Shown here: positions 709 through 10,102 of the stretch, in pieces
How positions within the stretch are numbered: the first letter of the stretch is position 1
Layout: each line of letters opens with the position of its first letter
From: Candidatus Latescibacterota bacterium
Lineage (GTDB): Bacteria > Latescibacterota > UBA2968 > UBA8231
Length of the DNA stretch: 64,000 nucleotides
Assembly: GCA_965242865.1 (NCBI GenBank)
Contig: CBDETK010000013.1
Span: 4,704,001-4,768,000, forward strand
Direction of reading: 5' to 3'
The notes under the pieces: model-generated
What the model was told of the DNA's origin: nothing
The model's input: only the letters and a program-made list of their open reading frames with translations
Database searches by the model: none
Program-made: the position numbers and the translations under genes

Positions 709-2532
709 ATGAACTCGTTTTTCAGCATGACCCGAATCGCCGGAATCGCCGCGGCGTGTCTGGCGGTCGTACTGGCCGGTTGTGGCAAAGAACACAACCC
801 CACGGCGGCCCAACCCGTGGTCACGGCCAACCCGGCCCAACCCGTGGCCAAGCAAGCCAGCATGACGCCCGAACAAGCCCGGGCGGAGATTGACCGGCGC
901 GAAATTCCTTATGCGGACTGGGCGTTTCTGTTGTACGCGCAAATGGGCAATCTGGAGGTTGTCAAGCTATTCCTTGCCGCGGGGATGGCGATTGAAACGA
1001 AAAACCCGACCGATCACTTTACCGCGTTGCACACGGCGGCGACCTATGGGCATTTGGCGGTAGTCAAGTATCTGGTAGGGCAATCGGCCACGGTGGACGC
1101 CAAAGGCAAGAACGGAGAAACGCCTCTTCAGTGGGCGGCGTTCAATGGGCATTTGGAGATCGTCAAGTATTTAGAGGAGCAAGGGGCCGACCTGTTAGCA
1201 GAAACGACCCGCGGCGATAGGGCGAAAGACTTGGCCGAACAAGGCGGGTTTACGGCGGTCGTAACGTTTCTCCAAGGTCAAGAAAAATGGAGGTTTGTAG
1301 GGGCGGCACAGGTTGGCAACCTTGAACGTGTCAAGGCATTTGTAGCGGCGGGCATGTCGGTTGACGCGTGGGAAGGCCACTTCGGCCTTACCGCCCTTCA
1401 CAGGGCGGCGCAGGGTGGTCATTTGGAGATCGTCAAGTATTTAGTGGGGCAAGGGGCCAGCCTAACGGCGACGGACAACTACGGCCATACCGCCCTTCAC
1501 AAGGCGGCGGGGGGTGGTCATTTGGAGATCGTCAAGTATTTAGTGGGGCAAGGAGCCAGCCTAACGGCGACGAACAACTACGGCCATACCGCCCTTCACT
1601 ATGCGGCGGGGGGTGGTCATTTGGAGATCGTCAAGTATTTAGTGGGGCAAGGGGCCAGCCTAACGGCGACGAACATCGGCGGCAATACCGCCCTTCACTT
1701 TGCGGCGCGGCATGGTGGTCATTTGGCGGTGGTGAAGTATTTAGTGGGGCAAGGAGCCAGCCTAACGGCGACGAACAACGACGGCCGGACGGCTAAAGAC
1801 CTAGCCAGCTCCTGGACCGGGGGCAGGGGTGCCGTCGTAGAATATCTCTCTGGTCAAGAAGAAAAGCAATTTCGTGCGGCGGCAGGGGCTGGCAACCTTG
1901 AGCGTGTCAAGGAATATGTAGCGGCGGGCGTGGCGATTGACGCTAAGAGCACCACCTACGGCTGGACCGCCCTTCACGCGGCGACGTGGGCGAATTATGG
2001 TGGTTTGGCGGTGGTCCAGTATCTGAAAGAGCAAGGGGCCAGCCTAACGGCGACGAACAACGCCGGCGGTAACGCCCTTCACACGGCGACGCAACGTGGT
2101 CATTTGAAGATCGTCAAGTATTTAGTGGAGCAAGGGGCCAGCCTAACGGCGACGGACAACTACGGCCAGACCGTCCTTCACACGGCGGCGCTGGATGTGG
2201 CGTTGGTCCAGTATCTGAAAGAGCAAGGGGCCAGCCTAACGGCGACGAACAACGACGGCCAGACCGTCCTTCACAAGGCGGCGGCTAATGGTGTTTTGGC
2301 GGTGGTCCAGTATCTGAAAGAGCAAGGGGCCAGCCTAACGGCGACGAACAACCGCGGCTGGACCGCCCTTCACTCGGCGGCGACCTATGGTAGTTTGGCG
2401 GTGGTCCAGTATTTAGTGGGGCAAGGGGCCAGCGTTACGACGGCGGACAACCGCGGCGAGACCGCTAAAGACTTGGCCAGCATCGGAGGCCATACCGACA
2501 TCGTGGAGTATTTGGAGTCGGTCGGCGGGTAG
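709..2532 (+). CDS. Ankyrin-repeat lipoprotein 1
   Basis: ATG at 709 follows AAGGA. Signal peptide has lipobox LAGC. Many TALHxAAxxGHLxxVxYLVGQGA repeats; ends EYLESVGG. Confidence 0.92.
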   Translation: MNSFFSMTRIAGIAAACLAVVLAGCGKEHNPTAAQPVVTANPAQPVAKQASMTPEQARAEIDRREIPYADWAFLLYAQMGNLEVVKLFLAAGMAIETKNPTDHFTALHTAATYGHLAVVKYLVGQSATVDAKGKNGETPLQWAAFNGHLEIVKYLEEQGADLLAETTRGDRAKDLAEQGGFTAVVTFLQGQEKWRFVGAAQVGNLERVKAFVAAGMSVDAWEGHFGLTALHRAAQGGHLEIVKYLVGQGASLTATDNYGHTALHKAAGGGHLEIVKYLVGQGASLTATNNYGHTALHYAAGGGHLEIVKYLVGQGASLTATNIGGNTALHFAARHGGHLAVVKYLVGQGASLTATNNDGRTAKDLASSWTGGRGAVVEYLSGQEEKQFRAAAGAGNLERVKEYVAAGVAIDAKSTTYGWTALHAATWANYGGLAVVQYLKEQGASLTATNNAGGNALHTATQRGHLKIVKYLVEQGASLTATDNYGQTVLHTAALDVALVQYLKEQGASLTATNNDGQTVLHKAAANGVLAVVQYLKEQGASLTATNNRGWTALHSAATYGSLAVVQYLVGQGASVTTADNRGETAKDLASIGGHTDIVEYLESVGG

Positions 2533-2557
2533 CGCGTCCCTTTCGTCAAGCAGTAGG

Positions 2558-2710
2558 TTGGGCGGCAGTCGGTTCGGTTCGGGTGTCGCCCTTTTTTTTG
2601 GGTGCTGGGGTCGTCAAATAGGAGATTTAGGATGCGCTTTTTGGTGCTCTTGGTTGGTTGGGCCGCGGCGGTGGGCTGCGGCGAGCTCGCCCTTCACGTG
2701 GCGGCGCGGA
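2558..2710 (+). repeat. Intergenic/leader duplication; second copy at about 5129-5280
   Basis: TTGGGCGGCA..CGGTTCGGTTCGGGTGTCGCCCTTTTTTTTGGGTGCTGGGGTCGTCAAATAGGAGATTTAGGATGCGC is nearly identical at both sites. Confidence 0.9.
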
Positions 2711-3252
2711 GTGGTTCTTTGGCGGTGGTCCAGTATTTAGTGGGGCAAGGGGCCAGCCTAACGGCAACGGACAACCTAGGCCGTACCGCCCTTCACGGGG
2801 CGGCGCGTTTTGGTCATTTGGCGGTGGTGGAGTGTTTAGTGGGGCAAGGGGCCAGCCTAACGGCGACGGACAACGACGGCGATACCGCCCTTCACTTGGC
2901 GGCGCTTTATGGTAGTTTGGAGATGGTCCAGTATTTAGTGGGGCAAGGAGCCAGCGTTACGGCGACGGACAACCTAGGCCGTACCGCCCTTCACTTGGCG
3001 GCGCTTTATGGTGGTTTGGAGATGGTCCAGTATTTAGTGGGGCAAGGAGCCAGCGTTACGGCGACGGACAACCTAGGCCGTACCGCCCTTCACTTGGCGG
3101 CGCTTTATGGTGATTTGGCGGTGGTGGAGTATTTAGTGGGGCAAGGAGCCAGCGTTACGGCGACGAACTCCTACGGCCGGACCGCTAAAGACTTGGCCAG
3201 CAGGAAGGGCCATACCGCCATCGTGGAGTATTTGGAGTCGGTTGGCGGGTAG
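2632..3252 (+). CDS. Ankyrin-repeat lipoprotein 2
   Basis: RBS AGGAG, MRFLVLLVGWAAAVGC signal/lipobox, about 5 ankyrin repeats plus a C-cap. Confidence 0.9.
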   Translation: MRFLVLLVGWAAAVGCGELALHVAARSGSLAVVQYLVGQGASLTATDNLGRTALHGAARFGHLAVVECLVGQGASLTATDNDGDTALHLAALYGSLEMVQYLVGQGASVTATDNLGRTALHLAALYGGLEMVQYLVGQGASVTATDNLGRTALHLAALYGDLAVVEYLVGQGASVTATNSYGRTAKDLASRKGHTAIVEYLESVGG

Positions 3253-3600
3253 CGTCCCAGCGAACAAAGCAAGTTGGGCGGCAGCTGGGGGCGTAAAAAT
3301 CGCTTACGGGTCAAAAAACAGATAGCAAATTGCCGCGGCGTTGCCGCCGGTGACCGTGGCCACGGTGTCGATTGCCGAAGTGGGCGCGGTATCGGCTGCC
3401 GAAGTGGGGCGCGTGGACGTGGGCGCGGTGACCGTGATCACGGTGTCGCTTGCCGACGTGGGGCGCGTGGGCGTTACCGATTGGGGCCGTTTTTGTGCAA
3501 AAAGTCGTCACTTGACCGAGCGGTTCAGGCCCATAAAGGGCCATTCGGTACAGGGTTCCCTTGACCTATGGGCCGTGCAACGGCGAGTCTTGGGCGGCAT
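3253..3600 (+). repeat. Post-ankyrin intergenic module; copies at about 5725-6016 and partial at 7029-7090
   Basis: CGTCCCAGCGAACAAAGCAAGTTGGGCGGCAGCTGGGGGCGTAAAAATCGCTTACGGGTCAA occurs 3 times; GGTACAGGGTTCCCTTGACCTATGGGCCGTGCAACGGCGAGTCTTGGGCGGC occurs twice. Confidence 0.9.
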
Positions 3601-3744
3601 GGCAAGGCACAATAGCGATTGACGCACTGAGAGTGCGCCCTAGCTTGGAGTATCCGCCTAAAACCCATCACAAGAAGGATTTTATGAACTCGTTTTTCAG
3701 CATGACCCGAGGGTCCCTTGACCTATTCACTTAGGAGCTTTGGT

Positions 3745-5112
3745 ATGCGCTTTTTGATTTTTGTGTTGGTTGGCTTGGTGTTGGGGTGTGGGGACGGTCC
3801 GCTCTCTCCTATAGAAGAAATAGAGACAAAGGAGGCTCTGCGGAATGCTGCGAGGAATGGTGATTTGGCGAAGGTCAAGCGGCTTATTAAGAGGTTTCCT
3901 AAGACAGATCGGGAAGCGGTGAGAGAGGAGGCGTTGCGTCCGGCGGCTGAAGGGGGTCATTTGGATGTGGTTCGTTTTTTGGTGGAGCAGGGTGCGAACG
4001 TCAACGCTCATTCGGAAAAAGGCTGGACGGCGTTGCATCGGGCGGCGGGGGAAGGTCATTTGGATGTGGTTCGTTTTTTGGTGGAGCAGGGTGCGAACGT
4101 CAACGCTCATTTGAATGGCGGCTGGACGGCGTTGCATCGGGCGGCTGAAGGGGGTCATTTGGATGTGGTTCGTTTTTTGGTGGAGCAGGGTGCGAACGTC
4201 AACGCTGATTCGAGAAACGGCTGGACGGCGTTGCATCGGGCGGCTGAAGGGGGTCATTTGGATGTGGTTCGTTTTTTGGTGGAGCAGGGTGCGAAAGTGT
4301 TTATGAGGGGCACGACGTCATACAACGCGGGCGGCGAGGATATCTTAGCGGGGGTTTTCCTCGACGTTCTAACTGGCTTTGCGTTTAATTTTACTGGTCG
4401 TGCGGCAAATTCGAGAGAGAAGAGGTTTGACTCCTGGACGGCCAGAGACTTGGCACAGCGTAAAGGTCATAGGGAGGTGGTGGCTTACTTCGATTTGATT
4501 GACGATTGGGCAACGCAGTGGGCAACGCAGTCGACGGTGTTTCTTGATGCGGCGAGGGCGGGCAACTTGGAAGTCGTCAAGCAAATCGTGGAGGCGGGCA
4601 TGGGCATGGGCATGCCCATTGACGCGACGGACGCCTTTGACAATACCGCCCTTCACTTGGCGGCGGAGGGTGGTCATTTGGCGGTGGTGGAGTATTTAGT
4701 GGGGCAAGGGGCCAGCCTAACGGCAACGAACAACCTAGGCTATACCGCCTTTCACAGGGCGGCGGCGGGTGGTGATTTGGCGGTGGTGGAGTATTTAGTG
4801 GGGCAAGGGGCCAGCCTAACGGCGACGACCTACAGCGGCCGTACCGCCCTTCACTTGGCGGCGGAGGGTGGTCATTTGGCGGTGGTGGAGTATTTAGTGG
4901 GGCAAGGGGCCAGCCTAACGGCGACGAACTACTGGGGCGAGACCGCCCTTCACTTGGCGGCGGAGGGTGGTCATTTGGCGGTGGTGGAGTATTTAGTGGG
5001 GCAAGGAGCCAGCGTTACGGCGACGGACGACAGCGGCCGTACCGCTAAAGACTGGGCCAGTGACCGCGGCCATACCGACGTCGTGGAGTATTTGGAGTCG
5101 GTCGGCGGGTAG
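3745..5112 (+). CDS. Ankyrin-repeat lipoprotein 3 (chimera of two repeat families)
   Basis: MRFLIFVLVGLVLGC lipobox. N-half repeats read HLDVVRFLVEQGANVNA; C-half repeats read HLAVVEYLVGQGASLTA. Confidence 0.9.
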   Translation: MRFLIFVLVGLVLGCGDGPLSPIEEIETKEALRNAARNGDLAKVKRLIKRFPKTDREAVREEALRPAAEGGHLDVVRFLVEQGANVNAHSEKGWTALHRAAGEGHLDVVRFLVEQGANVNAHLNGGWTALHRAAEGGHLDVVRFLVEQGANVNADSRNGWTALHRAAEGGHLDVVRFLVEQGAKVFMRGTTSYNAGGEDILAGVFLDVLTGFAFNFTGRAANSREKRFDSWTARDLAQRKGHREVVAYFDLIDDWATQWATQSTVFLDAARAGNLEVVKQIVEAGMGMGMPIDATDAFDNTALHLAAEGGHLAVVEYLVGQGASLTATNNLGYTAFHRAAAGGDLAVVEYLVGQGASLTATTYSGRTALHLAAEGGHLAVVEYLVGQGASLTATNYWGETALHLAAEGGHLAVVEYLVGQGASVTATDDSGRTAKDWASDRGHTDVVEYLESVGG

Positions 5113-5202
5113 CTTGCCGGCGAATAAGTTGGGCGGCACTCGGTTCGGTTCGGGTGTCGCCCTTTTTTTTGGGTGCTGGGGTCGTCAAATAGGAGATTTA
5201 GG

Positions 5203-5724
5203 ATGCGCTTTTTGGTGCTCTTGGTTGGTTGGGCCGCGGCGGTGGGCTGCGGCGAGCTCGCCCTTCACGTGGCGGCGCGGGGTGGTTCTTTGGCGGTGGT
5301 CCAGTATTTAGTGGGGCAAGGGGCCAGCCTAACGGCAACGGACAACCTAGGCCGTACCGCCCTTCACAAGGCGGCGGAGCGTGGTCATTTGGCGGTGGTG
5401 GAGTGTTTAGTGGGGCAAGGGGCCAGCCTAACGGCGACGGACAACTACGGCGATACCGTCCTTCACTATGCGGCGTTTTATGGTCATTTGGCGGTGGTGG
5501 AGTATTTAGTGGGGCAAGGGGCCAGCCTAACGACGACGAACAACGACGGCAATACCGTCCTTCACTATGCGGCAAGGCGTGGTCATTTGGCGGTGGTGGA
5601 GTATTTAGTGGGGCAAGGGGTCAGCGTTACGGCGACGAACAACGACGGCCGTACCGCTAAAGGCGAAGCCAGCCGCAACGGCCGTACCGACGTCGTGGCG
5701 TATTTGGAGTCGGTTGGCGGGTAG
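5203..5724 (+). CDS. Ankyrin-repeat lipoprotein 4 (paralog of 2632-3252)
   Basis: Leader and signal peptide match gene 2; about 4 repeats plus a C-cap. Confidence 0.9.
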   Translation: MRFLVLLVGWAAAVGCGELALHVAARGGSLAVVQYLVGQGASLTATDNLGRTALHKAAERGHLAVVECLVGQGASLTATDNYGDTVLHYAAFYGHLAVVEYLVGQGASLTTTNNDGNTVLHYAARRGHLAVVEYLVGQGVSVTATNNDGRTAKGEASRNGRTDVVAYLESVGG

Positions 5725-6047
5725 CGTCCCAGCGAACAAAGCAAGTTGGGCGGCAGCTGGGGGCGTAAAAATCGCTTACGGGTCAAAAAACAGATAGCAA
5801 ATTGCCGCGGCGTTGCCGCCGGTGACCGCGGTCACGGTGTCGATTGCCGCGGTGGACGTGGCCGCGGTGGACGTCTTGGGGCGCGTGGACATGGCCGAAG
5901 TGGGCCGTTTTTGTGCAAAAAGGCTGCACTTGGCCAATCGGTTTTGGCCCATAACGGGCCGTTTGGTACAGGGTTCCCTTGACCTATGGGCCGTGCAACG
6001 GCGAGTCTTGGGCGGCTTTACTCACTCTTTCACTTAGGAGATTTAGG

Positions 6048-7028
6048 ATGCGCTTTTTGGTGCTCTTGGTTGGTTTGGCCGCGGCGGTGGGCTGCGGCGA
6101 GCGGTCTATGCCGGCGGTCGGAGATAGCACGGCGGCGGCGGCGGATACGCTGGCGCAAGCGGCGGCGGCGGCGTTTCTGGCGGCGGCAGAGGCTGGCAAC
6201 CTTGAAAATGTCAAGGAATATGTAGCGGCGGGCGTGGCGATTGACGCTTCGGACACCGACGGCTTTACCGCCCTTCACTTTGCGGCGGCTGATGGTCATT
6301 TGGCGGTGGTCCAGTATCTGAAAGAGCAAGGGGCCAGCCTAACGGCGACGAACATCGACGGCGATACCGCCCTTCACTTTGCGGCGTGGCATGGTCATTT
6401 GGCGGTGGTGGAGTATTTAGTGGGGCAAGGGGCCAGCCTAACGGCAAAGGACAACAGCGGCGAGACCGCCCTTCACTCTGCGGCGTTTTTTGGTCATTTG
6501 GCGGTGGTGGAGTATTTAGTGGGGCAAGGGGCCAGCGTTACGACGGCGGACACCGACGGCTTTACCGTCCTTCACTGGGCGGCGTTTCGTGGTCATTTGG
6601 CGGTGGTCCAGTATCTGAAAGAGCAAGGGGCCAGCGTTACGACGAACATCGACGGCGAGACCGTCCTTCACTCTGCGGCGTTTTTTGGTCATTTGGCGGT
6701 GGTGGAGTATTTAGTGGGGCAAGGGGCCAGCCTAACGGCGACGACCACCAGCGGCGAGACCGCCCTTCACTTTGCGGCGTTTAATGGTCATTTGGCGGTG
6801 GTGGAGTATTTAGTGGGGCAAGGGGCCAGCCTAACGGCGACGACCACCAGAGGCTTTACCGTCCTTCACGGGGCGGCGTTTCGTGGTCATTTGGCGGTGG
6901 TGGAGTATTTAGTGGGGCAAGGGGCCAGCGTTACGACGGCGGACAACGACGGCGATACCGCTAAAGACTTGGCCAGCATCGGAGGCCATACCGACGTCGT
7001 GGAGTATTTGGAGTCGGTTGGCGGGTAG
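6048..7028 (+). CDS. Ankyrin-repeat lipoprotein 5
   Basis: RBS AGGAG, MRFLVLLVGLAAAVGC, N-cap, about 7 repeats, ends EYLESVGG. Confidence 0.92.
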   Translation: MRFLVLLVGLAAAVGCGERSMPAVGDSTAAAADTLAQAAAAAFLAAAEAGNLENVKEYVAAGVAIDASDTDGFTALHFAAADGHLAVVQYLKEQGASLTATNIDGDTALHFAAWHGHLAVVEYLVGQGASLTAKDNSGETALHSAAFFGHLAVVEYLVGQGASVTTADTDGFTVLHWAAFRGHLAVVQYLKEQGASVTTNIDGETVLHSAAFFGHLAVVEYLVGQGASLTATTTSGETALHFAAFNGHLAVVEYLVGQGASLTATTTRGFTVLHGAAFRGHLAVVEYLVGQGASVTTADNDGDTAKDLASIGGHTDVVEYLESVGG

Positions 7029-7673
7029 CGTCCCAGCGAACAAAGCAAGTTGGGCGGCAGCTGGGGGCGTAAAAATCGCTTACGGGTCAAGGCGCATAAG
7101 TGATTTTGGTCTCTGGCGTGGCTTTAGCGGGTGCTCGATTGTGCGAATTGTGCGAATTGTGGCTTTTTTTGCGGTCTTGGGCGGCCCAATGCGTTTTGAG
7201 TTCGGCCAGCACGTCAAAATCTTCGGGGGGCGGCAATTTGCTATCTGTTGGTTCTGCTTTCTTCTCAGAACGTTCTTTGGTGGGCGGTATTAACAGATAG
7301 CAAATTGCGGCGGCTGGCGGGTATAGCGTGGGGCGCGGGCGCGGGCGGACGATGCGTTGGCGCGTGGCTTGCACGGTGCTGAACGGGGTAGCGAGGTAGG
7401 CTTGTATGGACCGTTCGGAACGCCCAAGCGCGGCGGCTATTTGCTTGGTGGATAGGCCGGCCCGTCTTAGGGCGTGGGCGCGGTAGGCGTGGGCGTTGGC
7501 TTGCTTGCCGCGGCGAGCGGAGCGGCGATTGCCCTTTGCTTTTTCCGTGAGCGGCCAACTGCGGCGCGGCGACTGCCGGCGGACGAAATCGCACGCCTGT
7601 TTGCCTAACGCCGGCTACCTTGACATCGGCGCGGCGCGCTAGCTACTTTCCCTCCGGTATCGAGAGGATGGCC

Positions 7674-8825
7674 ATGCCCTTCCAAACCCACTTCGACTTT
7701 CGCCACCCTACCCGCATTGTCCACGGCCCCGGGTCCATCGCCTGCTTGGCGGATTGCTTTTCCCCGGCCGACACGGTCCTGATCGTCTCCGATCAGGTCT
7801 TGGGGGACCTCGGCGTCGTGGCAGCGGTCGCCGCGGCCCTCGGCACCATCCCGCATGCCGTCTATCTCAAAGACGGTGTGAGCGAGCCGACTCAAGAAGC
7901 GGTCGCCGCAGGAGTCCAACTCTACCAGCAAAAACGCTGCACCGCCCTTATTGGCCTCGGCGGCGGCTCCCCCATGGACGTAGCCAAAATGATCGGCGTG
8001 CTCGCGTCCAACGACGGCCGCATCACCCAGTACTTGGGCAACGACAAAGTCGCAAACGACCTGCCCTATCTCGCGTGCGTCCCCACCACCTACGGCACCG
8101 CCAGCGAAGTCACGCCCTTTGCCGTGCTAGACAATCCGGCCAGCGGCAACAAAGACCCGGTTATTAGCTGGAAAATCGCGCCCCAAATCGGCGTCCTCGA
8201 TCCCGACCTGTCGATGGCCCTGCCGGCCGCCATTGGCGCGGCTACGGGCATGGACGCCCTAACCCACGCGCTCGAATCCTATATCAATTTAGCGGCCACG
8301 CCCCTCACCGAAGGGCTCGCGCTCCACGCCATCCGCCTCATCGGCGCCAACCTGCGCTTGGCCTGCGCCAACGATTACGCGCTCGCCGCGACCGAAACCA
8401 TGCTCATCGCCAGTATGCTGGCGGGCGTCGCCTTTTCCCAGACGCGCCTCGGCAATGTCCACGCCATGTCCCATCCGGTCGGCGCCCACTACCACGTCCA
8501 TCACGGGCTGCTCAACGCCATCTTGCTGCCGCACGTCATGGAGTTCAACTGGCTCGCCTGCCCCGGCAAATTCGCCGCCATAGCCGAGGCCCTCGGCCAA
8601 CCCACCGCCGGGTTGAGCCCACGCCAAGCCGCGCAAGCGGCCATCGCCGCGGTGCGACACCTCAACGCCGACTTAGGCATCCCGGCCAAGCTAGGCGCGG
8701 TCGGCGTTGATGAGGCCCACATTCGCGCTATGGCGCAGATGGCCATGCAGAGCGGCAACATCGCCGTCAACCCGCGCAAAACCACCCAGCGCGATCTCGA
8801 ACTTTTATTTCAACAAGCCATTTAG
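7674..8825 (+). CDS. Iron-containing alcohol dehydrogenase
   Basis: GLGGGSPMDVAK, VPTTYGTASEVT, TGMDALTHALES, HAMSH and HHGLLN motifs. Alternative start at 7668. Confidence 0.93.
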   Translation: MPFQTHFDFRHPTRIVHGPGSIACLADCFSPADTVLIVSDQVLGDLGVVAAVAAALGTIPHAVYLKDGVSEPTQEAVAAGVQLYQQKRCTALIGLGGGSPMDVAKMIGVLASNDGRITQYLGNDKVANDLPYLACVPTTYGTASEVTPFAVLDNPASGNKDPVISWKIAPQIGVLDPDLSMALPAAIGAATGMDALTHALESYINLAATPLTEGLALHAIRLIGANLRLACANDYALAATETMLIASMLAGVAFSQTRLGNVHAMSHPVGAHYHVHHGLLNAILLPHVMEFNWLACPGKFAAIAEALGQPTAGLSPRQAAQAAIAAVRHLNADLGIPAKLGAVGVDEAHIRAMAQMAMQSGNIAVNPRKTTQRDLELLFQQAI

Positions 8826-8842
8826 CATTTAGGAGGTACACC

Positions 8843-10102
8843 ATGTCTCTGCCCCGCATGTTCCGCGTCCGCCAACTCTTTTCCGCGCCCACAGTCGAGG
8901 ACATCCCCGCGGCCGTGCGCACCGAGGTCCAGCGCCTCGACTTAGGTCCCAACGTCAACCCCGGCGAGACCATCGCCATCTCGGTCGGCAGCCGCGGCAT
9001 TGCCAACATCGCGCTGGTGATCAAAAGCCTCGTGGCCGAATTCAAGGCCCTCGGCCTCCAGCCCTTTCTCGTCCCGGCCATGGGCAGCCACGGCGGCGGC
9101 ATTGCCGAGGCGCAACAGGCCATTATCGAGGGCTACGGCGTCACCGAGGAATACACCGGCGCGCCCATTAAGGCGTCGATGGAAACCGTACAGGTGGGAG
9201 CGACCGAAGACGGCGTTCCCGTCTTTTTCGACCGCTACGCCTTTGAGGCAGACCACGTAGCCGTCGTCGGTCGCGTCAAGCCGCACACCGACTTTGTCGG
9301 CGAAATCGAGAGCGGCCTGCACAAGATGATGCTCATCGGCTTGGGCAAGCACAAAGGCGCGGCCCTGTACCACCAAGCCATTGTCCACTACAGCTTCGAC
9401 CGCATCGTCCGCTCGGTCGGCCAAACCGTCATCGACCAGTGCGGCGTGCTCATGGGGCTGGCCCTCGTCGAAAACCAGTACGACCAAACCGCGCTCATCC
9501 GGGGCGTGGGGGCCGACGAGTTCGTGGAGCGCGAAAAGGAATTGCTCGTCCTCGCCAAGCAATGGATGCCGCGCCTGCCCTTCGACGAAGTCGATCTGCT
9601 CATCGTCGATGCAATCGGCAAAAACATCTCCGGCGCTGGCATGGACACCAACGTCGTTGGCCGCAAGTTCCACGACAACCACGCGGCCGACAAGGAGTAC
9701 CCCAAAGTAACCCGCATCCTAGTCCGCAGCCTGACCGAGGAGACCCACGGCAACGCCTCGGGCATTGGCACGGCCGAATACGCGCACCAGCGCGCCGTCG
9801 AGCAGATGGACCGCGAGATTACGTACATCAACTGCATGACCGGCAATCACCCTTCGGGCGCCCACATTCCGCTCTACTTCGACACCGATCGCATCTGCAT
9901 TGAAAAGGCCCTAGAGACCATTGGCCTAGTCGAGCCTGAAAACGCCAAGGTCCTGCGCATCCACAACACCCTCGCGCTCGGCGAGTTGCTCGTCTCAGAA
10001 GCCTATCGCTCCGAACTCGAGCCGCGCGAGGACTTGGAAATCATCGCCGAGGCCGAAGAAATGACCTTCGACGCCAACGGCGACCTGCCGCTTACCTTCT
10101 AG
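8843..10102 (+). CDS. Lactate racemase (LarA-like)/DUF362 domain protein
   Basis: VGSRGIANI, PAMGSHGG, RVKPHTDF..ESGLHKM..IGLGK and GKNISGAGMD motifs; strong RBS AGGAGG. Confidence 0.75.
   Translation: MSLPRMFRVRQLFSAPTVEDIPAAVRTEVQRLDLGPNVNPGETIAISVGSRGIANIALVIKSLVAEFKALGLQPFLVPAMGSHGGGIAEAQQAIIEGYGVTEEYTGAPIKASMETVQVGATEDGVPVFFDRYAFEADHVAVVGRVKPHTDFVGEIESGLHKMMLIGLGKHKGAALYHQAIVHYSFDRIVRSVGQTVIDQCGVLMGLALVENQYDQTALIRGVGADEFVEREKELLVLAKQWMPRLPFDEVDLLIVDAIGKNISGAGMDTNVVGRKFHDNHAADKEYPKVTRILVRSLTEETHGNASGIGTAEYAHQRAVEQMDREITYINCMTGNHPSGAHIPLYFDTDRICIEKALETIGLVEPENAKVLRIHNTLALGELLVSEAYRSELEPREDLEIIAEAEEMTFDANGDLPLTF

Follow-up and report, generated by a model that had tools for sequence, protein, structure and literature searches.

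A species-specific ankyrin repeat family with a uniform framework and hypervariable codons in a Latescibacterota bacterium

We analysed a stretch of 64,000 nucleotides from a Candidatus Latescibacterota bacterium (assembly GCA_965242865.1, contig CBDETK010000013.1, positions 4,704,001 to 4,768,000), hereafter called the window. Near its start, between positions 643 and 7028, five ankyrin (ANK) genes lie on the same (+) strand and contain about 32 copies of a 99-bp unit, in which a few codons are hypervariable within a much more uniform framework. These genes likely belong to a species-specific family of exported ankyrin proteins that evolves by duplication, repeat shuffling and natural selection, with no dedicated mutator. 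An earlier, model-made note on the window (the original prediction) had offered two readings of the cluster, either targeted diversification by a trans-acting mechanism resembling that of diversity-generating retroelements (DGRs), or strong diversifying selection plus gene conversion that yields a repertoire of surface binders. The second reading fits every test made here, namely the excess of replacement changes, the grouping of units by genome and the mosaic frameworks, while for the adenine-directed mutagenesis of the first each testable defining feature failed.

According to the mechanism that we propose, new copies of units and of whole gene cassettes would arise and be rearranged through homologous recombination or gene conversion. 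This shuffling would keep the 25 framework codons, most silent sites included, alike within the genome, i.e. it would lead to concerted evolution. Diversifying selection would fix replacements at some five to eight codons of the target-binding face. By analogy with the eukaryote-like ankyrin proteins of symbionts, the targets are probably proteins of a host or of other cells. The frozen third base of several variable codons would then be a by-product, as the accepted changes at these codons would be nearly all replacements and would fall mostly on the first and second bases. From four-fold codons such as GGT, replacements would fall on the first two bases alone, and silent third-base changes would have had too little time to accumulate in the lineage of this genome (G000).

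Variation within the 99-bp unit

Two sets of gap-free units were used, 23 from the cluster and 41 from the whole genome. Each unit contains 25 framework codons and eight variable codons, X1 to X8, which are codons 2, 3, 4, 6, 11, 14, 15 and 17. A nhmmer profile made from the 23 cluster units has 93 matches in the genome (6.0 Mb), 32 of them inside the cluster, and the motif anchor finds 35 units in the cluster when the C-terminal caps are counted. The roughly 30 copies that had been predicted for the five genes are therefore borne out, and the predicted consensus, ACG .. GGC. ACC GYC CTT CAC. GCG GCG .. GGT. TTG, matches the 23 gap-free units.

The original prediction also held that the third base of the variable codons is nearly fixed. 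This is correct for four of the eight codons. In all 23 units X1 and X2 are NNC and X7 and X8 are NNT, as predicted, while the first and second bases of the same codons vary. In the genome-wide set the third base is fixed at X2 (NNC, 41/41), X7 and X8 (NNT, 41/41 each), and X1 is NNC in 39/41 units. For X3 to X6 the claim does not hold; the third-base entropy is 0.8-1.6 bits, and among the 23 units the third base is T in 17 and G in 6 at X4, G in 15 and T in 8 at X5, and C in 16, A in 6 and G in 1 at X3.

Likewise, the statement that the X codons take many values is only partly right. X3 to X7 (codons 4, 6, 11, 14 and 15) are truly hypervariable, with 2.4-3.4 bits, but the variation is moderate at X1, mostly Asp or Asn, and at X8, mostly His. 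At X7, nine amino acids and zero silent variants are found in 41 units. The silent sites of the framework had been described as almost invariant, which is an overstatement. In the framework the pairwise proportion of silent differences (pS) amounts to 0.118 for the units of the window and to 0.189 for those of the whole genome, and several silent sites located in the unit's second half are dimorphic among the 23 units (GTG/GTC 13:10, TTA/CTG 20:3, GGG/GGA 18:5).

To quantify the third-base pattern we counted minimum-spanning changes over all eight X codons. In G000, 11/84 changes fall on the third base, which does not differ significantly from an expectation of 20% (one-sided binomial p 0.07) and is lower than an expectation of 25% (p 0.006). 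In the genome of a sister species (G031), which contains the same type of module, the share is 23/82 (Fisher p 0.02 against G000). There, the X7 codons include GAG, CGG, CAG, TAC and GGA, and the same codons are not restricted to NNY. Because the freeze is absent at the same codons in G031, it is a state of the G000 lineage and not a property of the family.

The NNC/NNT variation had been taken as the footprint of a DGR, in which a trans-acting reverse transcriptase (RT) would copy an adenine-rich template and rewrite AAY codons of the units into NNC or NNT. Typical hallmarks of such systems are a DGR-clade RT, usually near the target, a template repeat that is a second and usually non-coding copy with A at the variable sites, variation confined to template adenines, and one 3' variable region; the accessory protein Avd is common among DGRs, although not universal. 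Some features of the units agree with this idea. In four X codons the third base is constant and the first two vary. X2 is most often AAC, and adenine is the most frequent base at the first two positions of X2 and at the second position of X1. Retrohoming would, in addition, homogenise the framework.

However, the genome-wide searches that had been suggested as a check found neither the enzyme nor the template, in agreement with the first part of the condition under which the original prediction would fall back on ordinary selection plus duplication. The genome, which is 93.6% complete, has a single RVT_1 match. It scores as a Drt4-type defence RT of 516 aa (PADLOC E 1.8e-152), encoded on the (-) strand at L001:808-2358, which corresponds to ~5.488 Mb on contig C13 of G000. 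This gene lies 0.78 Mb off and adjoins other long open reading frames (ORFs). Avd (PF05635) is without a match in the genome; with ~6% of the genome unassembled, the absence of a DGR RT is not proven. Among the 93 unit-like copies there is no template with AAY at the X positions. The first and second bases of the X codons offer 16 positions, of which no copy has A at more than 10, and the copies with the highest counts are ordinary coding units. Read in the unit frame, a single copy contains a stop, and this copy is a gene end.

The framework itself also speaks against adenine-directed mutagenesis. Five framework columns are invariant A and eight have A in at least 90% of the units, and such a process should have scrambled them. 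Variation of the types GCC/GTC, GTG/GTC, TTA/CTG and CTA/GTT is present, and these C/T, G/C and T/C sites fit no single template. The third base of X4 to X6 is mostly T or G and almost never A. Instead of a single 3' variable region there are more than 40 units along whole genes at several loci, and, as described above, the third-base restriction is missing from G031. We therefore regard a DGR as extremely unlikely. The case also calls for caution elsewhere, since NNC/NNT variation with a frozen third base is by itself no DGR footprint.

Probable selection and exchange among units

The suggested analysis of entropy and of replacement versus silent differences for each codon of the aligned units was carried out, and the replacement excess is concentrated at the X codons. 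The pairwise proportion of replacement differences (pN) at X codons is 0.523 in the window (23 units) and 0.560 in the genome (41 units), compared with 0.086 and 0.095, respectively, in the framework. When changes are placed by parsimony on a tree of the 41 units (FastTree), the X codons receive 223 replacement and 5 silent changes and the framework 87 and 38, respectively; as the tree takes no account of recombination, the numbers are approximate. The resulting rate ratio at X codons is 10.9 when their own silent sites are used and 6.3 when the framework silent sites are used. Codons 4, 6, 11, 14 and 15 are each individually significant (p < 0.006).

Relaxed constraint could in principle produce a similar contrast, if the surface codons drift neutrally while purifying selection and conversion maintain the framework, and no positive selection is needed. 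Solvent-exposed ankyrin positions tolerate most residues, and conversion lowers the framework pS and thereby inflates the ratios taken over it. However, the X codons contain 4.7 silent and 19.3 replacement sites, so that neutral drift predicts about 45 silent changes among 228, and five were found. The nine amino acids at X7 without any silent variant point in the same direction. We consider relaxed constraint without positive selection unlikely.

A pair of recent paralogues shows where the changes fall. A comparison of genes 2 and 4 that begins 45 nt before the start and runs to coding base 272 gives one upstream difference and eight coding differences, the latter all within four X codons. 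Hence 8/54 X-codon bases differ and 0/219 other coding bases (Fisher p 1.5e-6). In contrast, two paralogous unit pairs from the loci at 1.22 and 1.73 Mb are identical at the X codons, and each pair differs once in the framework, which means that X codons do not change automatically.

Several observations fit less well with selection and shuffling as the explanation. Gene conversion wipes out silent differences in the framework, which inflates ratios over the framework pS, and the 41-unit tree does not take recombination into account. Five of the bases that differ between genes 2 and 4 are consecutive (codons 69-70), and the donor combination is present in no unit of the genome. The divergence at X codons is saturated (~12/24 nt) irrespective of the framework distance, and five unit pairs with identical 75-nt frameworks differ at 1, 6, 7, 11 and 14 X bases. 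The mild deficit of third-base changes goes beyond the simplest model, being below both the G031 share and the 25% expectation, and we found no further explanation for it. Finally, ongoing selection is suggested by the comparison of paralogues; the sequencing runs were available as Logan contigs, whose ends fall inside the repeats and in which minor variants stay hidden. The saturation follows in part from the block structure of the framework variation, and it could in part be due to short conversion tracts, which would be hidden outside the X codons as the donors share the framework.

The same observations could be explained by a targeted process of another kind, i.e. a mutator other than a DGR, or templated conversion with very short tracts, that rewrites the binding-surface codons only. 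The clustering of the gene 2/4 differences in four X codons, five of the eight bases being consecutive, would be expected from it, and so would unit pairs with 0/75 framework differences and up to 14/24 X differences, and the mild third-base deficit. However, the replacement excess (ratio 6-11) fits site-specific positive selection, and identical frameworks would hide ordinary conversion tracts outside the X codons. The unit pairs without any X difference and the absence of the wobble pattern from G031 are also unfavourable, and the ORFs, Pfam matches and Rfam scan of the cluster and its surroundings gave no candidate for the machinery. Such a process is quite unlikely in our opinion. The specific form of it in which the binding-surface codons are rewritten by an undescribed system, either short templated conversion among the more than 40 units or a localised mutator, we rate as very unlikely; if it were true, it would be a somatic-like diversification system on an ankyrin scaffold that works without a retroelement.

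For the framework, the comparison with the sister species is informative. The nearest framework neighbour of each unit is found in its own genome, for 41/41 G000 units and 19/19 G031 units. The framework identity is 0.879 within G000, 0.816 within G031 and 0.765 between the two. Some silent differences are nearly fixed between the species; codon 7 is ACC in 37/41 units of G000 and ACG in 14/19 units of G031, and codon 24 is TTA in 32/41 and CTG in 19/19, respectively. Silent choices differ also at codon 25 (GTG in G000, GTC/GTT in G031), codon 26 (GGG, GGC/GGA) and codon 31 (CTA, CTC). The near-fixed silent differences imply homogenisation, or amplification from one founder per lineage.

Within G000 the units are mosaics. 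A four-gamete pattern within the 99 nt is found for 140/253 pairs of informative framework sites, and framework blocks such as EIVK, AVVE, AVVQ..KE and EMVQ, or SLTA versus SVTA, are combined freely. The mean amino-acid identity of units is 68%, that of the framework 83%, and the nucleotide matches of the arrays are 71-91%. Three consecutive units of gene 2 differ at just 3-7 of 33 residues.

Duplication is visible at a larger scale too. Arrays with the same framework occur at C13:1.2197-1.2212 Mb and 1.7304-1.7323 Mb, and single units at further sites, so the family exceeds the window. The junction between genes 1 and 2 (2533-2601, + strand) is 96% identical over 48 nt to the junction between genes 3 and 4 (5113-5172), and to copies at C13:1219503 and 1730287 (blastn), from which it follows that the two-gene module has itself been duplicated. 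The junction copy at 5131-5162 contains a terminator-like hairpin with 13 pairs and a T run. Behind gene 2, a tail of 62 nt directly after the stop (3253-3314, + strand) is 100% identical to the tails behind gene 4 (5725-5786) and gene 5 (7029-7090) according to blastn. Further downstream, a non-coding-looking segment of ~480 nt (7058-7545, no strand assigned) has copies with 77-93% identity behind ANK arrays at six other positions of the genome (C13:1729850, 4027932, 1219221, 3231830, 1046656 and 5098995). Judged by these copies, the segment is part of the duplicated cassette. The shared junctions, the 62-nt tails and the ~480-nt segment together indicate that whole cassettes as well as single units have been duplicated and exchanged.

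Mosaic units might also be created in the assembly, when strain mixtures or collapsed repeats are merged in a metagenome-assembled genome (MAG). The MAG consists of 13 contigs with an estimated contamination of 6.8%, and contigs from individual runs break inside the arrays. Twelve runs, none of them RNA, were listed as Logan contigs, and four of these (labelled X1, X2, X4 and X5; these are names of runs, not of codons) were aligned to the cluster. In all four the run contigs end inside the repeat arrays. However, unique pieces of the cluster that contain whole units (738-1442 and 4266-4674), among the longest pieces listed, are reproduced with 0 differences in two samples (runs X1 and X2). All genes are open with their caps in place, and other loci and G031 show the same architecture. 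An assembly artefact is scarcely credible on this evidence.

Two observations in run X4 concern the cluster. One contig joins position 5169 to 5760 with 7 other letters between them, at a depth of 119, which would remove gene 4, and a strain that is ~2% diverged covers the cluster patchily. The joint and the patchy cover may reflect a strain difference or a path through the repeat graph and are taken as hints only. Runs X6-X9 are labelled as sponge metagenomes and contain small shares of the sequence; they were not used as evidence for the habitat.

Gene cluster and relatives

In all five proteins the only Pfam matches above the cut-off are to ankyrin families (Ank_2, E 2.7e-136 to 5.5e-43). 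The PF12796 scores are 146-445 bits for a cut-off of 27.3, and no NACHT or NB-ARC domain scores above the cut-off in any of the five. The proteins follow one plan, a hydrophobic N-terminus and then capped modules, of which the window contains eight. Each module begins with an N-cap (AGNLE.VK...), continues with three to seven internal units and closes with a C-cap (G.TAKDLA...GHT..VEYLES). The hydrophobic N-termini of genes 1 to 5 end in LAGC, AVGC, VLGC, AVGC and AVGC, respectively, as read by eye. Compared with the lipobox motif, [LVI][ASTVI][GAS]C, these resemble signals of the lipoprotein type, and the five proteins are predicted to be exported and lipidated.

ANK gene 1 (643-2532, + strand) was called from its ORF, Pfam matches and motif units; it is 629 aa long as listed and contains three capped ankyrin modules. 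From the translation, judged by eye, the true start is probably the ATG at 709 (MNSFFSM...), which is followed by the lipobox-like LAGC. Its unit arrays cover 1372-1770 and 1948-2442 (span 1372-2442, + strand), with hypervariable codons 2-4, 6, 11, 14, 15 and 17 in each 33-codon unit. Gene 2 (2602-3252, + strand, 216 aa) has a signal peptide with the AVGC lipobox-like motif, five units and a C-cap. Gene 3 (3718-5112, + strand, 464 aa) has two modules. The second uses the main framework, whereas the first (3930-4295) is a separate, internally conserved repeat subfamily (GHLDVVRFLVEQGANVNA) with period 99 and 91% matches among its copies. Within the cluster, this first module alone is weakly matched at the nucleotide level (64-70%) at other sites in several genomes of the genus. 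Gene 4 (5173-5724, + strand, 183 aa) is a paralogue of gene 2. Gene 5 (5979-7028, + strand, 349 aa) consists of seven internal units between an N-cap and a C-cap. According to Tandem Repeats Finder every gene contains arrays of period 99 with 71-91% nucleotide matches, and the gene 5 array (6253-6961) has a period of 294 as well.

Antigenic variation from silent cassettes was set aside as an explanation; every gene has its own start, signal peptide and caps. Rfam gives 0 matches at the gathering score within the window, and the sigma-70 promoter scan gives 0 sites. Genes 3 and 5 are each preceded by an intergenic region with short GC-rich tandem repeats, at 3348-3467 (periods 24 and 39) and 5846-5874 (period 15), respectively, and the two regions are 77% alike.

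The surroundings of the cluster are shared within the genus. The flanks at 1-465 and 7609-10100 match 18 same-genus genomes at 77-89% identity (83-89% in 14 of them), and in these 18 genomes the syntenic site has no match to the ANK cluster. The distance between the flanks ranges from ~1.6 to 30 kb in 13 genomes, i.e. the site is a variable island in the genus. None of the eight relatives examined has ANK genes in the island. The four islands that were scanned differ in content; the ten ORFs scanned in them belong to acyltransferase, SIMPL, PhyH and similar families, and include a Kelch-repeat protein in one genome (G005).

Nucleotide matches to the family were found in 2/30 other genomes of the genus, G031 (71-72%) and G042 (70%). 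A search of 5.8 billion proteins gave 63% identity for the closest public protein, and the best metagenome contig reaches 58% over a short stretch, the others at most 51%. Conspecific orthologues were found neither in the 5.8 billion proteins nor in the metagenome contigs or the 30 genus genomes. By these searches the ANK family is species-specific, and it occupies several loci.

In G031 the same type of module is found in one open frame of 3179 aa (G031:C1:3196000-3208500, - strand). This frame is made up of capped ANK modules of the family in alternation with CARDB domains of the adhesion type, the latter as ~17 near-identical repeats (Pfam CARDB E 1.2e-33 for a piece of 301 aa); a proline-rich repeat is located at the N-terminal side, and the N-terminus has, by eye, a signal-peptide and lipobox-like stretch. 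The alternation of ANK and CARDB speaks for a location at the cell surface or outside the cell.

Comparison with known systems

DGRs resemble this family in the NNC/NNT-type variation, here at four codons, and in the conserved scaffold around variable residues. The variable proteins of DGRs have a C-type lectin scaffold, as stated in PMC6328139. Here, the fold is ankyrin, the framework adenines are conserved and the units are many and dispersed; an RT of the DGR type, Avd and a template were not found in the genome. Our literature search found no paper that links DGR targets to ankyrin folds.

The structural counterpart is provided by designed ankyrin repeat proteins (DARPins). The best match of gene 4 among solved structures is the DARPin chain 6mol_A (E 5.3e-113), and the alignment places X2, X3, X4, X6 and X7 on positions at which 6mol_A itself varies from module to module. 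These five codons correspond to the randomised design positions of DARPins, 2, 3, 5, 13 and 14; the mapping rests on the 6mol_A alignment and on these design positions. The proposal that most of the X positions are residues randomised in DARPins is thus right for five of the eight, but not for X1, X5 and X8, which are fixed in DARPins. Both systems consist of capped modules, N-cap, internal units and C-cap, of consensus-like 33-residue repeats. Unlike DARPins, this is a natural family whose diversity comes from evolution and not from synthesis; positions 1, 10 and 16, fixed in DARPins, also vary, whereas the DARPin positions 33 and 26 are nearly constant. If our interpretation is correct, the cluster contains eight natural, capped, DARPin-like modules in which the variable residues mark the paratope.

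Expanded sets of ANK genes are known from host-associated bacteria, which is a further similarity. ANK genes are reported in sponge-associated Latescibacterota MAGs (PMC12993501), and single eukaryote-like proteins altered the uptake of bacteria by sponge cells according to PMC13747020. These symbiont reports, in contrast to the present analysis, deal with domain counts, without frozen frameworks and hypervariable codons. In the open literature (subscription journals and supplements being outside the scope) we found no description of a near-fixed framework with hypervariable codons in bacterial ankyrin proteins. If the interpretation holds, the variable residues give a handle on what such "eukaryote-like" ankyrin proteins bind.

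In evolutionary terms the family comes closest to the highly internally conserved WD, ANK and TPR repeats of fungal NOD-like receptors (NLRs; NOD, nucleotide-binding oligomerisation domain), such as the Podospora nwd/het-e family described by Dyrka et al. (2014). According to PMC4986451, these repeats are near-identical within a genome through concerted evolution, are exchanged within and between paralogues and are polymorphic in number. Positive diversifying selection acts on a few codons per repeat that lie on the concave binding face, five positions at a Podospora ANK locus, and the arrangement is interpreted there as a generator of recognition diversity. The same authors define internal conservation as an amino-acid identity above 85% over at least 100 residues, and propose repeat-induced point mutation (RIP) as the mutator (PMC4986451).

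There are differences from the fungal receptors as well. The proteins described here are bacterial, have N-termini of the signal-peptide/lipobox type and contain no NOD (NACHT/NB-ARC) or effector domain above the Pfam cut-off. The mean unit identity of 68% is under the fungal 85% threshold, except for parts of gene 2. RIP is not known to exist in bacteria. In both systems, however, repeats are closer within than between genomes and a few codons of the binding face carry an excess of replacements. If our reading of the cluster by selection and exchange is right, bacteria share a device of fungal immune receptors, in which a uniform, recombined framework lets a few surface residues vary and be reshuffled quickly, and in this uncultured Latescibacterota lineage the device sits on exported ankyrin proteins.

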